Shown: piece after piece, positions 50,601 through 56,027 of the stretch
How the letters are laid out: every line of letters starts with the position of its first letter
How positions within the stretch are numbered: position 1 is the first letter of the stretch
NCBI RefSeq assembly: GCF_001677475.2
Contig: NZ_CP015229.1
Source of the DNA: Escherichia coli
GTDB taxonomy: Bacteria; Pseudomonadota; Gammaproteobacteria; Enterobacterales; Enterobacteriaceae
Length of the DNA: 64,000 bases
Strand: one strand, 5' to 3'
Made by a program: the position numbers

Positions 50601-53600
50601 ATGATCGGCGGCTGGCTGGTGCTGGTTGTTTTGCTGGCGCTGCCGTTATTAGTGATCCCCGGCCTGCTGGTGCAACGCCCGCTGGCGCGGCTGGCGAACG
50701 AAGGAATGCGTGAGTCGGCGGTACGTAACGCGACGCTGGTGGAAGCCGTGCAGTCGATTGAAGACATTAAACTGCTGCGCGCTGAACAGCGTTTTCAGAA
50801 TCAGTGGAATCACACTAACGACGTGGCCTCGTCCATCAGCATGAAGCAACGTTTTCTCACCGGGCTACTGCTCACCTGGACCCAGGAAGTGCAATCCATC
50901 GTCTACGTGGTGGTGCTGTTGGTGGGCTGCTTTATGGTGATGAACGGCGACATGACCACCGGTGCGCTGGTCGGGACGACGATCCTGGCTTCGCGCACCA
51001 TCGCGCCGCTGTCGCAGATATCCGGCGTGCTCTCGCGCTGGCAGCAGGCGAAAGTGGCGCGTAACGGCCTCGATGAACTGATGAAGCGCCCGGTGGATCA
51101 ACCGGAACACGGCAAACTGGTGCATAAAGCAGTGCTGCACGGCAATTATCAGTTCAGCAACGCGGTGTTTTATTACGACGAAGAAGAGAAGATTGCCGAT
51201 GTGGCGATTGGCAAACTTAACATTCAGGCGGGTGAGAAAATCGCCATTCTTGGGCGCAACGGCGCGGGTAAATCGACGCTACTGCAAATGCTCGCCGGAA
51301 TGCGTATCGCCCAGCAGGGGCAGGTGCTGCTGGATAACATCAGCATCGGGCAGCTTGATCCGGCGGATCTGCGCCGCGACATGGGGCTGCTCAGCCAGAC
51401 CGGGCGACTGTTCTTCGGTTCGCTGCGGGAAAACCTCACTATGGGGATGCCGGAAGCCAGCGATGAAGATATCGAACGCGCATTAATCCTCAGCGGGGCG
51501 CTGCCCTTTGTGCAGAAGCAGAAAAACGGCCTCAACTACATGATTCAGGAAGGGGGATTTGGTCTTTCTGGCGGTCAGCGGCAAACGCTGCTGCTGGCGC
51601 GGCTACTTATCTCTCAACCCAATATCGTGCTGCTCGATGAACCCAGCGCCTCGCTGGATGAAATGGCAGAAGCGTATTTAATTGAACAACTAAAACAATG
51701 GGTTGGGCATCGCACGCTGGTCATCGCTACTCACCGCACGGCGATGCTGCAACTGGTGGACAGGATCATCGTGATGGATCAGGGGCGGATTGTGATGGAT
51801 GGCGCGAAAGAGGCCATTTTGCGTGAACAGGGCGAACCCACGACGCGACGGGTGGTGTTGCAGGAGAAGAATAAGGGGTCTGCCGCATGAATGGACAACT
51901 GCAATACAACCGTGGCCTGACTGAACCCCGCCTGCCGCGTTCGGCGCTGGCGGTACGCGTTACCGCTGTGATGCTGCTCTGTTTTCTCGGCTGGGCGTGG
52001 TACTTCCAGCTTGATGAAGTCACCACCGGCAGCGGCACGGTAGAACCTTCCGGGCGCGAACAGGTGGTGCAGTCGCTGGAAGGCGGAATTCTGTATCATC
52101 TCGACGTCAAGGTTGGCGATATTGTTGAACAGGGCCAGCCGCTGGCGCAGCTTAACCGCACCAAAACGGAATCCGACGTCCAGGAAGCAATGTCGCGGCT
52201 GTACGCGGCGCTGGCAACCTCGGCGCGGCTGCGGGCGGAAGTGAGTAATAAACCGCTGGTCTTCCCTGACGAACTGAATAAATTCCCCGAACTTATCGAG
52301 TCGGAAACGGCGTTGTACAACACTCGCCGCGATGGGCTGAACAAAGCCACCACCGGGCTGACGCAGGGGATTAGCCTGGTCAACCGCGAACTGGCGATGA
52401 CCCAGCCGCTGGTAAAACAGGGGGCGGCGAGCAGCGTCGAAGTGCTGCGCCTGCAACGCCAGGCCAATGAACTGGAAAACAAACTTAGCGACGTACGTAC
52501 GCAATATTACGTTCAGGCGCGCGAAGAGTTAGCGAAAGCCAATGCGGAAGTGGAAACCCAGCGTTCGGTGATCCGTGGACGGGAAGACTCCCTCACCAGG
52601 CTCAACTTTACTGCGCCAGTTCGTGGCATTGTTCAGGATATTGATGTCACCACAGTTGGCGGCGTCATTGCCCCCGGTGGTAAACTGATGACCATCGTGC
52701 CGCTGGATGAGCAACTGCTGATTGAGGCAAAAATCTCCCCGCGCGATGTGGCGTTTATCCATCCGGGGCAAAAATCGCTGGTGAAAATAACCGCTTACGA
52801 TTACTCCATTTATGGCGGTCTGCCGGGAGAAGTGGCGGTGATTTCACCAGATACCGTGCAGGATGAAGTGCGGCGCGATGTTTATTACTATCGGGTGTAC
52901 ATTCGCACTTTCAGCAACCATCTGGAAAACAAAAGCAAACAGCAGTTTCCGATATTTCCCGGTATGGTGGCGACGGTCGATATCCGCACCGGCAAAAAGA
53001 GCGTGCTGGATTATCTGTTGAAACCCTTTAATAAAGCACAGGAGGCGTTGCGCGAACGATGAACATTAGCGATGTAGCAAAAATTACCGGCCTGACCAGC
53101 AAAGCAATCCGCTTCTATGAAGAGAAGGGGCTGGTGACGCCGCCGATGCGCAGCGAAAATGGTTATCGCACCTACACGCAGCAGCATCTCAACGAACTGA
53201 CCTTACTGCGCCAGGCGCGCCAGGTGGGCTTTAACCTGGAAGAGAGCGGCGAACTGGTGAATCTGTTTAACGACCCGCAGCGCCACAGTGCTGATGTAAA
53301 ACGGCGCACGCTGGAGAAGGTGGCGGAGATCGAGCGACATATCGAAGAACTGCAATCCATGCGCAACCAGCTGTTGGCGCTGGCGAATGCCTGCCCTGGC
53401 GATGACAGCGCCGACTGCCCGATTATCGAAAATCTCTCCGGCTGCTGTCATCATCGGGCGGGGTGAAAATCAGTTAATCCCCGTTTGCACCGAAAGAATA
53501 TGCTGCAAACTTTCTACCATTATGCGCCCCGATTGAAATAAGCCTTCCTGGATTTCATTGTTAACATTCACAGCGTGAACCAGGGAGGCTAATAACACCA

Positions 53601-56027
53601 CTTGCAAGAAGGCAAAAATAAACGCACCGATAATCATAATATGCGTCAGGGGGATTTTCCTTTGCTCCTTCATTTTAAATAACCCACAAACTGACCTTCC
53701 TTCATTAAGGCGACTTTTCCCGTGTGGTGATAAACAATGACGTTATAAAGACCTGACTGATAAACAGTGGCATCTTTATTGTCTTCATCAATTGCACATA
53801 ATGAATCATTGAGATAAGCAAAGTTCTTACTGCTCATTCTAAAGGTCATGCCAAATCCTTTATAAATGGCTTTCTTTGCCGCCTGGGCATGTTGTGCGGC
53901 TTCTGCATTTTTAAATGCCTGCGCCTCGGATGCACTTAAAATAGCCGTCTGACGCTGTTGTTCTGCGAGATAACAGGTGTCATGGCTGACGCCCTGCGCC
54001 TGGCAATCTGCGATGCGGGAAGTGGGTGAACTACAGCCAGCCAGTAATATAACCGCCAGCAGGGAAAACGATTTAATGGAACTATTCATCATTGTTAACC
54101 TTAAATAATGTACAAATTAATGAAGAGGTGAAACCCGGCAAGCTTCCTTGCTCTTATTTATATTGAGGATTGGAATATTAGAAAGAATATCCCACGCCGA
54201 CACCCGCGCCGAAATCAGATTGCGTATCCGCAGAGACACCGGCTTTAATCACGGTATGCGTTCCGGCATTAAAAGATGTTCCTACAGACACCGCAGATTC
54301 ACCGTTGAACGTTCCCGCTCCCGCTGACACCATCATCAAGTCACCGGTTTTCACCTGTGGTTGTGAGGCGATAGCGATGGCAGATGCAGTTCCCGCATTG
54401 GCTTCTTTACGATTGTCCTCAACTTCGTTTTTCAGAGAATCGAAATGGTTATTGAGCGTGTTAATTTGTTGGCTGTTATCTGCGACCCGTTTTTGCGTGT
54501 TGGTTAACTGTTGCTGCGTTTGTGCGGAATCTTGTCTCAGACTTTCAATTTGCTCATGTGCCTGGACAGACTTCTGCGCCAGACTTTGCATTTGTTTATC
54601 GTATTGAGCCCTTTCTTTTTGCTGTTGTGCTGCCACATCGGTTGTCAGTGCATTCATTTTCTGCCCTTGTTCCGTGGTAGTGCGCTGAATAGCCTCATTT
54701 TGAGCCGCCAGTCTGGCATTAATCATCTCCTGATAATGCGCAGTATTTTGCGTATCTCCAGTCGCGGCGAGCGTTTTTTGTGTGGCTACGATCTGCGCCT
54801 GTTGCTCTGTAATTTGCGTTTGCTGGGCATCAGTTACCGCAGACTGTCGGGCGTTGATCATGCTCTGATAACGGGCTGGTGTCTGTGCATCACCTGTAGC
54901 GGCAACGGTTTTTTGTCCTGCGTCAGGATCTGTCTGGACAGTGGGAGTCTGAGTGGTATCAGGTGTTTCAGAAGGGATGTAGTGATGTTCAGTCAAATAG
55001 GTATACGCAGCGGGGCTGTTGTCTGTGCGTTCTAAAAAGCGGGTAATCTTCTGCTCAATCTCCGATTGCGACATGCCAGAGTTAATGGCTGAAAGCTCTG
55101 TTGCCGCCGCTTCAATGGTATCACCAGCTAAAACAACAGGGCTGGATGTTGCTGAAATTATGAGTGCCAGTAAAGCTACGTTTACAGTTTTCATTCATTT
55201 TCTCTTGTTCAAAATAAGTCGCACTAATGTTTCTATAAGAAACAAATAATATTATTTTAAGAAATAAACTACGTTGCAATTTAATCGAAATTTACGCCGC
55301 CATTTGTGTGATGTAAAGCGCATTTTTGTCTGGTGTAAGCGTAAACACCATCAATAAGAAACAAAAATGGTTTCTTATATAAATAAAAAAGGAAATCATT
55401 TCGTGCTCTTTCAATGTAAAAAAGAGTAAAGGCTTGTTTTGATAAGCGAAATAAATTCTGTTTCTGGACTAAACGTGAACCGGTTCCTGATGTGTGTTAA
55501 AATGCGTTTCTTTGATAAATCTCAATTTTTAAGAGGTTTACGCCAGGCAGGAAAATTTAAATGAATGAATTTGAGAAGATTTTTAATGAAATGAATCTGG
55601 ACCGGGCATTGCTACCGATCCTTTTTCGTTCGAACCGGTCAACAGTGTGGAAATATTTAAGTGGCGATAGTACGGCTCCTGCCTCAGCTATGTCACTGAT
55701 TATGCTGTTGCAGTTAATCCAGAAACGAAACCCCGATCTGTTAGCCGAATGGTTAACGCTTTCTGATTTCACCATTCCGCCAGAAGTTTACCTGGACCAG
55801 CCTGATTACTGGAAAGGGTGGGTGTATACGCAACACAAGGTCAATAAAAACGTCCTGGAATATCTAAAAAAACATTATCCGGATGAAGACCAAAAAAACA
55901 TGAATAAAGGTAGTGACGAGTAATTTGCCAATGCCAGTTAATATAGCGGAGGCGGCCTACGATTCGGGCGCAGACTTCCAGGCATGATAAGACGCGTCAG
56001 CGTCGCATCAGGCGTCGGTGCATAACC

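Follow-up and report, generated by a model that had tools for sequence, protein, structure and literature searches.

A terminator-less tail-to-tail junction between cueR and a 67-amino-acid membrane protein gene at the edge of O-island 29 in Escherichia coli

How do two convergent transcripts end when their genes leave no room between them? In a 64,000-nucleotide stretch of Escherichia coli DNA (contig NZ_CP015229.1; hereafter the window), cueR on the plus strand and orf67, which encodes a 67-amino-acid membrane protein, on the minus strand lie tail to tail (Table 1). The first-pass annotation had described these genes as convergent, with ends at 53466 and 53470, separated by 3 bp and without space for a terminator on either side. 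Each of these points was borne out. The junction reads cgg gcg ggg TGA aaa TCA gtt aat, in which the cueR stop occupies 53464-53466, the orf67 stop appears as TCA at 53470-53472 (TGA on the minus strand), and only AAA lies between them. A scan of both strands revealed no terminator-like site within ~350 nt of the junction. RefSeq annotates the identical two genes and 3-bp gap in E. coli GMF065 and in O157:H7, and the layout is present in ~21% of complete E. coli genomes. As opposite-strand neighbors with facing 3′ ends, the genes have the geometry of an excludon. An Rfam scan of 52.5-56.2 kb (E ≤ 1) detected nothing at the junction and only REP/naRNA4 elements at 55981-56058; ybbJ is found 2.6 kb beyond the junction, behind REP elements. 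We rejected the idea that the junction is a recombination breakpoint, as the sole mosaic patch lies inside cueR (nt 100-300).

Table 1. Genes, spacer, and predicted RNA structures around the cueR/orf67 junction (positions in the window)
Feature	Position	Strand	Basis or remark
HlyD-family type I secretion adaptor gene, last gene of the giant-adhesin/T1SS operon	51887-53062	+	Gene calls and RefSeq annotation
cueR, Cu(I)-responsive MerR-family regulator, 135 aa	53059-53466	+	NCBIfam, TIGR, and Pfam matches
Terminator-like hairpin followed by UUUUU, antisense to cueR codons 9-15	53084-53102	-	8 pairs, 3 of them G-C
Palindromic stem-loop in cueR codons ~115-132 (GATGACAGCGCCG...CGGCTGCTGTCATC)	53401-53452		Folding; pairing across 80 species
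Spacer AAA	53467-53469		Sequence; AAAA in E. marmotae-type lineages
orf67, gene for a 67-aa single-pass membrane protein	53470-53673	-	Final gene in the island operon
Weak hairpin GUUUGCA...UGCAAAC followed by UUUCU	53483-53510	+	17-44 nt past the cueR stop
Stem-loop in orf67 codons 28-45 (plus strand GCCUUCCUGG...CCAGGGAGGC)	53541-53590		Folding; recoding z
Lipoprotein gene, 140 aa, lipobox LLAGC	53670-54092	-	RefSeq "lipoprotein"; translationally coupled to orf67
Trimeric-autotransporter-type adhesin gene, 338 aa, coiled coil and YadA anchor	54178-55194	-	First gene of the module

The plus-strand gene is a bona fide cueR. Its product matches the NCBIfam model for Cu(I)-responsive regulators, NF007590, over its full length (E 5.9e-93; 308 bits, cutoff 244), as well as TIGR02044 (E 1e-61; 206.6 bits, cutoff 147.4). 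These full-length equivalog matches exceed the curated cutoffs, the protein contains the Pfam domains MerR_1 and MerR-DNA-bind and the C-terminal Cys-x7-Cys metal loop, and dN/dS is 0.01-0.06. The ATG of cueR overlaps the stop of the HlyD-family gene (ATGA), which follows siiEA (28947-49724) and an ABC gene (49728-51890) in the giant-adhesin/T1SS operon. Since the HlyD gene runs into cueR without a gap, read-through from the secretion operon would also cross the junction. Ahead of cueR, the terminator scan returned only weak matches at chance level.

On the other side, the junction forms the left edge of O-island 29 of E. coli O157:H7, an accessory module encoding a YadA-type adhesin, a lipoprotein, and the small membrane protein Orf67. 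The adhesin matches Pfam YadA_anchor (E 6.1e-12, residues 279-338) and is annotated in RefSeq as "YadA family autotransporter adhesin." By gene order, the lipoprotein gene is probably Z0638 of O157:H7; its dN/dS is 0.04-0.10, and homologs in other Enterobacteriaceae share 40-66% identity. The AF2 model of the lipoprotein (pLDDT 73, moderate confidence) consists of a helix (residues 37-69) and a beta domain (75-139). Operons of the SadA/SadB type encode a trimeric autotransporter adhesin together with an accessory lipoprotein. A role as a SadB-like helper is unsupported for the lipoprotein here, for which no homology to SadB was found in either sequence (no match to PDB sequences with E < 0.39) or fold (no Foldseek match of the model to the PDB with E < 0.06 or TM > 0.3). 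Where the same module is located elsewhere (L091 and L094), a canonical intrinsic terminator is present. Thus, the absence of a terminator here is a property of this junction.

To place the 3-bp gap in context, we compared species-representative genomes of 80 Enterobacteriaceae, measuring how far the closest convergent stop lies from that of cueR. In 75, the partner either overlaps cueR or ends at most 5 bp beyond it: the distance is -4 in 47 species, 0 in nine, +3 in eight, +5 in one, and between -9 and -50 in ten. Only five species have distances above +5. The gap is 0 bp in K-12 (cueR/ybbJ) and 4 bp in E. marmotae-type lineages. The commonest state, a 4-nt stop-stop overlap of the YTAR type, reflects the same genome compaction, although cueR and orf67 in the window stand 3 bp apart and do not overlap. 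Four kinds of convergent partner occur (ybbJ, a ~240-aa gene, a 409-442-aa gene, and orf67), and in none of the enterobacterial genomes examined does cueR have a terminator of its own. A tight junction is therefore the normal state of the cueR 3′ end and no statistical oddity.

We examined the sequences that read-through transcripts would enter. The weak hairpin just past the cueR stop (-7.5 kcal/mol, z -3.18), whose stem is kept in most island lineages and lost in L007, could serve as no more than a very weak intrinsic terminator. The first terminator-like site that read-through on the minus strand would meet, near the start of cueR, was rejected; when folded (53102 to 53084; -8.1 kcal/mol, z -0.52), it was indistinguishable from shuffled sequence. 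A promoter-like site on the minus strand within cueR (ATGACA-N18-GATAAT, 53451-53422) was also set aside, since the region contains four such matches compared to 5.7 expected from shuffles of the region. Past both stops, C exceeds G, with a C/G ratio of 1.6-2.0 on plus-strand RNA and 33% C versus 22-26% G on minus-strand RNA. Rho-dependent termination does not require intergenic space.

Two stable stem-loops are embedded in the coding regions; their conservation statistics come from related species. The palindrome in cueR is the most extreme window in that gene. It begins ~17 nt and ends ~68 nt past the orf67 stop on minus-strand RNA, folds with -28.8 kcal/mol (plus) and -27.0 kcal/mol (minus), and has no U tract on either strand. 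Over the 80 species, pairing holds for 94.3% of cells in minus-strand RNA and for 82.0% in plus-strand RNA, and the synonymous-recoding z, averaged over 45 species, is -2.42 (minus) and -0.89 (plus). The palindrome is a candidate for a structure that protects the 3′ end of the convergent partner's mRNA or positions polymerase collisions. The stem-loop in orf67, 75-124 nt past the cueR stop, folds on the plus strand with -23.6 kcal/mol (z -5.46; 0 of 200 shuffles) and on the minus strand with -19.2 kcal/mol (z -2.96). Its recoding z ranges from -3.2 to -5.8 (plus) and from -1.9 to -3.9 (minus), compared to about -1 to +1.9 in all other orf67 windows. The stem is nearly constant across island lineages, two lineage groups each having a single substitution at the end of the stem, and the 30-nt interior has 4-7 substitutions. 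In orf67 homologs that do not abut cueR, the stem-loop is missing. We regard it as a candidate 3′-end structure of cueR read-through RNA. A new detail is that each embedded stem-loop folds better in the read-through RNA of the partner gene.

These statistics are not decisive. Coding constraint makes compensatory double substitutions impossible in the stem-loops, and recoding z values of -3 or below also occur in a few ybbJ control windows. When we looked in ybbJ, near the cueR stop, for an analog of the orf67 hairpin, we found no antisense hairpin that was consistent across species. Because UUAUUU follows the orf67 hairpin on the minus strand, this structure could function in the transcript of orf67 itself instead.

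Both stem-loops resemble known 3′ ends. Dar and Sorek (2018) found that the steady-state 3′ ends of Rho-terminated mRNAs are stem-loops that lack U tracts and are followed by C-rich sequence (PMC6061677). Both RNAs at the cueR/orf67 junction have this configuration soon after the stop: a stable hairpin (-23.6 kcal/mol for cueR RNA and -27.0 kcal/mol for orf67 RNA) without U's, with C-rich, G-poor sequence downstream (C/G 1.5-2.0 on plus-strand RNA; 33% C versus 22-26% G on minus-strand RNA). Here, however, each stem-loop is embedded in the reading frame of the opposite gene, and we infer their use as 3′ ends. A second resemblance is to the bidirectional intrinsic terminators found between convergent genes by SEnd-seq (Ju et al., 2019, as cited in PMC7815308), in which a convergent pair likewise has, close to the gene boundary, a palindrome able to fold into a stem-loop in both nascent RNAs. 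The cueR/orf67 junction differs in that its 3-bp spacer contains no hairpin with flanking A/U tracts, the palindrome resides within cueR codons, and no U tract follows the embedded hairpins on the relevant strands.

RNA data exist for the same cueR 3′ end in K-12. ExcludonFinder (NAR 2025) lists cueR-ybbJ among 165 convergent pairs whose transcripts overlap in 50% or more of 58 RNA-seq samples (PMC12288877). On the cueR strand, Adams et al. (2021) mapped Rho-dependent termination to a region at 514988(+), ~590 nt past the K-12 cueR stop (Rho score 15.4, p 2.7e-12), at which reads upstream and downstream number 61 and 5 in untreated cells and 68 and 86 with bicyclomycin (PMC7815308, Supplementary file 2). 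The Term-seq tables of that study assign no 3′ end to cueR or ybbJ, and its tables contain no minus-strand Rho region near these genes. Instead of cueR read-through, the source of the Rho region could be an antisense promoter within ybbJ. All this RNA evidence concerns K-12, with ybbJ as the partner, and the 514988 region lies in downstream sequence that differs from that of the window. The K-12 junction shares with ours the same cueR, the same terminator-less 3′ end, and a partner stop 0-3 bp away. There, overlapping transcription was detected, whereas in the window it is predicted from the gene layout; moreover, the partner here is orf67 of O-island 29, with a strong embedded hairpin that ybbJ lacks. 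Since tail-to-tail packing of cueR is found in almost all enterobacteria and overlap is already documented in K-12, we conclude that the cueR/orf67 arrangement is real but ordinary.

As the junction has no canonical terminator, transcript overlap ended by Rho is likely by analogy, and the first-pass annotation's proposal that the cueR and orf67 transcripts run into the opposing gene is plausible. The model we favor, with moderate confidence, is a terminator-less junction whose overlapping 3′ ends are generated by Rho and trimmed to the embedded stem-loops. RNA polymerases leaving cueR would continue antisense to orf67 and to the lipoprotein gene, and polymerases reading through from the type I secretion operon may follow the same path past cueR. 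Those leaving orf67 would enter the antisense strand of cueR. Since such extensions would be untranslated as well as C-rich and G-poor, Rho would be expected to end most of them, possibly aided by head-on polymerase collisions. The products would then be trimmed back to the stem-loop in the partner's coding sequence, that in orf67 for cueR RNA and that in cueR for orf67 RNA. The outcome would be 3′ ends that overlap by ~100-600 nt, as in a convergent excludon. Any effect on the expression of CueR or of the adhesin module is probably small; cueR is weakly expressed, so the overlap may be quantitatively trivial.

The first-pass annotation suggested that the overlap could reciprocally dampen cueR and the lipoprotein operon. 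In such a regulatory excludon, interference between the two transcription units, cutting of the RNA duplex by RNase III, or both would reciprocally lower CueR and the adhesin/lipoprotein/orf67 module, making copper sensing and surface proteins anticorrelated. The tight junction without a terminator and the excludon classification of K-12 cueR-ybbJ fit this idea, as do the expression and environmental regulation of the island genes in O157:H7 (PMC5826968). We nevertheless consider it unlikely. The partner gene varies between lineages, which argues against partner-specific regulatory logic, and the location of the stop wanders between +5 and -50 nt, as neutral compaction would predict. In addition, the available part of PMC5826968 describes no CueR-related phenotype for deletion of the island.

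It is similarly improbable that the junction is insulated, with the embedded stem-loops, or pausing or collision at them, stopping transcripts ~70-125 nt past the stops, such that overlap would be short and neither coding sequence would have much antisense coverage. Strong stem-loops do lie near both stops, each favoring the incoming partner's RNA, and stem-loops in nascent RNA position the head-on polymerase collisions that drive termination at convergent gene boundaries (bioRxiv 10.1101/2022.10.23.513370). However, lacking U tracts on the relevant strand, the hairpins are not canonical intrinsic terminators, and in K-12 the plus-strand signal reaches ~590 nt past the cueR stop (PMC7815308). 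Moreover, read-through of even 70-125 nt is enough to span between a third and a half of orf67, or the end of cueR that encodes metal binding.

A bolder possibility, to which we give quite a low probability, is that cueR and orf67 are co-adapted. Through its synonymous sites, each coding sequence would encode a stem-loop that sets or protects the 3′ end of the partner mRNA, and the junction would be the point where an RTX/BapA-type and a YadA-type adhesin operon collide, making their expression and that of CueR mutually dependent.

It could also be argued that orf67 is not a gene: the 204 bp would serve both transcripts as 3′ untranslated region, and the 3-bp gap would be an artifact of ORF calling, since orf67, like the lipoprotein and the 120-aa ORF, belongs to no family in Pfam, NCBIfam, or PHROGs, is missing from the three island genes (z0638-z0640) listed in PMC5826968, and has several frameshifted database variants. 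This is very improbable. The dN/dS of orf67 is 0.10-0.18 at a dS of 0.33-0.59, with many synonymous changes, and the C-terminal 19 residues are invariant between Escherichia clades. PGAP annotates the protein (WP_000664216/215), which is predicted to have a basic N terminus, a transmembrane segment at residues ~9-33, and a conserved C-terminal tail, and the start codon overlaps the stop of the lipoprotein ORF (ATGA). A word-index homology search with orf67 yielded only Escherichia matches, including many frameshifted copies. Through the neighbors of lipoprotein homologs, the only route by which distant relatives were recovered, we found homologs in other genera with 42% and 34% identity and the same transmembrane-plus-tail layout, in every case overlapping the lipoprotein gene by 4 nt. 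The small-gene ribosome-profiling supplements for Sakai mention none of cueR, ybbJ, and the Orf67 peptide. Judged from its pattern of substitutions, orf67 is a real gene under purifying selection.

As it stands, the finding is of little consequence, although the absence of a terminator in cueR, which ends directly against a convergent gene, helps explain why cueR/ybbJ is called an excludon in K-12. If the embedded stem-loops serve the opposing transcript, the junction would be a compact case of 3′-end signals placed within a neighbor's reading frame, with bearing on synonymous-site constraint and on genome recoding and refactoring. Should polymerases reading through from both adhesin operons meet head-on at the junction, pathogenic E. 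coli that carry the island could have a slightly altered dosage of CueR.

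The first-pass annotation had described cueR and orf67, a 67-codon minus-strand ORF, as convergent genes whose stop codons lie 3 bp apart. Reading 53460-53475 (gggg TGA aaa TCA gtt) confirmed this arrangement, with TGA-AAA-TCA at 53464-53472. The remark that there is no space for terminators also holds for the spacer, which is just AAA. Judged from the NCBIfam matches, the identity of cueR is beyond doubt. On the opposite strand, the start of orf67 overlaps the stop of the lipoprotein gene (ATGA), and an 85-bp spacer separates the YadA-anchor gene from the lipoprotein gene downstream.

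Features at and around the cueR/orf67 junction
Feature	Coordinates	Strand	Basis or remark
SiiEA/BapA-like giant adhesin, 6,925 aa	28947-49724		first gene of the secretion operon upstream of cueR
ABC transporter	49728-51890		giant-adhesin/type I secretion operon
HlyD adaptor	51887-53062		giant-adhesin/type I secretion operon; stop overlaps cueR ATG
cueR	53059-53466	+	ORF list; NCBIfam NF007590 E 5.9e-93 over full length, TIGR02044 E 1e-61
cueR stem-loop	53401-53452		inside cueR; palindrome of Asp-Asp-Ser-Ala and Gly-Cys-Cys-His codons
AAA spacer between the two TGA stops	53467-53469
orf67, 67 codons	53470-53673	-	ORF list
orf67 stem-loop	53541-53590		inside orf67; folding of both strands' RNA
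140-aa lipoprotein ORF	53670-54092	-	lipobox LLAGC
338-aa protein with YadA membrane anchor	54178-55194	-	Pfam E 6.1e-12

We compared cueR loci from 80 species-representative Enterobacteriaceae genomes, taking the distance between the cueR stop and the closest stop of a convergent gene. The distance was -4 in 47 genomes (a shared YTAR tetranucleotide), 0 in 9, +3 in 8, +5 in 1, -9 to -50 in 10, and above +5 bp in only 5. A 3-bp junction is not at all unusual for cueR. In K-12, the ybbJ stop directly follows the cueR stop (TGATTA, 0-bp gap), and in island-bearing E. marmotae-type lineages AAAA replaces AAA. The exact distance drifts, in what looks like neutral compaction. The partner was YbbJ in most genera of this set, a 233-258-aa '...SPWYRGTVVFML...' protein in Citrobacter, Kosakonia, Siccibacter, and Phytobacter, a 409-442-aa protein in E. 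albertii, E. whittamii, and two more Escherichia, and orf67 in genomes with O-island 29. Despite this lineage-varying partner, its end lay between +5 and -50 nt relative to the cueR stop in all but the five genomes beyond +5 (L011-L090). The site 3′ of cueR looks like a recurrent spot for insertion or replacement. An intergenic terminator belonging to cueR was never found among the cueR loci compared.

The 67-aa ORF is a real gene. In comparisons with E. marmotae-type and other clade loci, orf67 had a dN/dS of 0.10-0.18 at dS 0.33-0.59, while the lipoprotein gene had 0.04-0.10 and cueR 0.01-0.06. Direct homology searches with orf67 returned nothing outside Escherichia, and some matches were frameshifted. 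Homologues of the lipoprotein (40-66% identical) occur in other Enterobacteriaceae, and in two of three contexts fetched they are followed, with the same 4-nt overlap, by a gene for 64-67 aa. Identity of the encoded proteins to orf67 is 42% and 34%, and both show the same basic N-terminus, TM helix, and polar tail. Since the small gene recurs behind lipoprotein homologues, the YadA-type adhesin, lipoprotein, and small membrane protein form a recurrent module. In other Enterobacteriaceae this module occupies differing chromosomal sites (fetched loci L091, 2340-4171; L093, 1-4207, adjoining a serine recombinase; and L094, 2460-3971). In L091, a metagenomic enterobacterial contig, it lies upstream of qmcA and ends in a canonical intrinsic terminator (CCCCTCT...AGAGGGGCTTTTT). 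Enterobacter asburiae has a canonical terminator after the lipoprotein gene; the small gene was not called at that locus. As the module has terminators elsewhere, their absence here is a property of the junction, not of the module. In the database, several copies of orf67 (P0019, P0023, P0033, P0037, P0040, and P0042) are frameshifted or joined to the lipoprotein C-terminus. P0040 is found on 12 contigs, and thus orf67 may be truncated in at least one lineage.

The closest known case to cueR/orf67 is K-12 cueR-ybbJ, a member of the core convergent excludon set of ExcludonFinder, a set that requires transcript overlap in no fewer than 50% of 58 RNA-seq samples (PMC12288877). For scale, the number of convergent pairs in E. 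coli is put at 704 in a 2026 preprint; transcripts overlap in 165 according to ExcludonFinder (PMC12288877). In K-12, a Rho termination region maps to 514988 (+), antisense to qmcA (Adams et al., 2021; Rho score 15.4, p 2.7e-12), with upstream/downstream reads of 61/5 in untreated cells and 68/86 in bicyclomycin (PMC7815308, Supplementary file 2). This region is 588 nt past the K-12 cueR stop (514400). The Term-seq tables of the same study assign no 3′ end to cueR or ybbJ (PMC7815308), which is consistent with the absence of an intrinsic terminator but would also be explained by low expression.

A consensus scan found no terminator-like site within ~350 nt of the junction. The candidate closest to it on the minus strand (53102-53084) folded no better than shuffled sequence, and the junction, when tested, did not qualify as a bidirectional intrinsic terminator. 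Past the cueR stop, the plus-strand RNA has a C/G ratio of 1.6-1.75 over its first 100 nt and of 1.5-2.0 over nt 156-285; the minus-strand RNA ~78-285 nt past the orf67 stop is 32-33% C versus 22-28% G. This C-rich, G-poor composition past both stops fits Rho loading on untranslated antisense RNA. By analogy with cueR in K-12, cueR and orf67 transcripts likely enter the opposing gene, and polymerases reading on from the secretion operon would further increase transcription across the junction. A promoter-like ATGACA-N18-GATAAT (10/12 matches; 53422-53451, minus strand), identical in K-12, falls within the palindrome near the cueR 3′ end, oriented antisense to cueR; shuffled sequence yields such matches at least as often.

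Each gene contains a stem-loop. That in orf67 folds at -23.6 kcal/mol in plus-strand RNA (z -5.46 versus dinucleotide shuffles) and -19.2 kcal/mol in minus-strand RNA (z -2.96). Against random synonymous recodings, its plus-strand z was -3.2 to -5.8 in five lineages, and the remaining orf67 windows gave about -1 to +1.9. The stem is almost constant (two lineage groups each show a single substitution at its end), and the 30-nt interior carries 4-7 substitutions across lineages. The hairpin was not found in two orf67 homologues located away from cueR. UUAUUU trails it on orf67's own strand, a caveat to a role in cueR RNA. For the cueR palindrome, standard pairs filled 94.3% of pair cells in minus-strand RNA (15% G-U) versus 82.0% in plus across the 80 species, and the mean recoding z was -2.42 versus -0.89 in 45 species. 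In a nine-genome subset no other cueR window is as extreme. As a caveat to both stem-loops, a few control windows in ybbJ reach similar recoding z. Two further caveats are that coding constraint precludes compensatory double changes and that the species compared are related.

On the relevant strand, both hairpins lack a U tract. They look like the protective stem-loops, likewise free of U tracts, that mark the steady-state 3′ ends of Rho-terminated mRNAs (Dar and Sorek, 2018) and like nascent-RNA stem-loops that position head-on polymerase collisions (bioRxiv 10.1101/2022.10.23.513370). A 3′-end role for the two stem-loops is a hypothesis that we hold tentatively, as possible rather than probable.

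The cueR-ybbJ interval is O-island 29 of O157:H7, given as 2,643 bp with three genes, z0638-z0640, in PMC5826968; the 67-aa gene is absent from the three named there. That paper also names Z0639 'GmrA', a transcriptional activator of fliA. By gene order, the YadA-anchor protein is the island's middle gene; the sole island ORF with a faint HTH-like match (MqsA antitoxin, E 0.08) is a 120-aa ORF (55561-55923). Between this ORF and ybbJ is a REP cluster (55930-56110; Rfam naRNA4, 74.4 bits at 55981-56058), and the ybbJ 3′ region here contains REP, unlike that of K-12 ybbJ, which abuts cueR. By megablast, the full 2.8-kb stretch is present in 1,123 of 5,426 complete E. coli genomes, and the remainder match the query partially.

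Upstream, the HlyD-family stop overlaps the cueR start (ATGA), and cueR looks like a fourth gene of the giant-adhesin/type I secretion operon. The giant adhesin is a single 6,925-codon ORF filling one third of the window; the O157:H7 genome examined carries it as a pseudogene. K-12 has neither island. Since K-12 lacks the secretion operon and yet keeps ~95 bp of the hlyD 3′ end directly before cueR (L003, 5900-5996), its layout is a deletion derivative. Nucleotides 100-300 of cueR (53159-53358) differ at 15 positions from the closest E. coli locus (L001) and are identical to a divergent Escherichia-clade locus (L004), with L001-like flanks; this mosaic indicates a short recombination tract within cueR. 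Elsewhere in the window, tesA (-) and ybbA (+), taken as their longest ORFs, share ~60 bp in a head-to-head overlap (61440-61502); K-12 tesA-ybbA is listed as a divergent excludon (PMC12288877).

The proposal that cueR and the lipoprotein operon reciprocally dampen each other found no support. The identity of the cueR partner changes between lineages and the stop position drifts, which argue for tolerated compaction over a designed switch. The gene arrangement is already in RefSeq, with the same genes and the 3-bp gap in GMF065 and O157:H7 and the 67-aa gene labelled 'hypothetical protein'. With convergent excludons, tail-to-tail overlapping genes, and Rho-dependent 3′ ends as the general classes, cueR/orf67 is a previously undocumented pair of a well-known type. 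The putative reciprocal embedding of 3′ structures is the sole element that could raise the importance of this junction.
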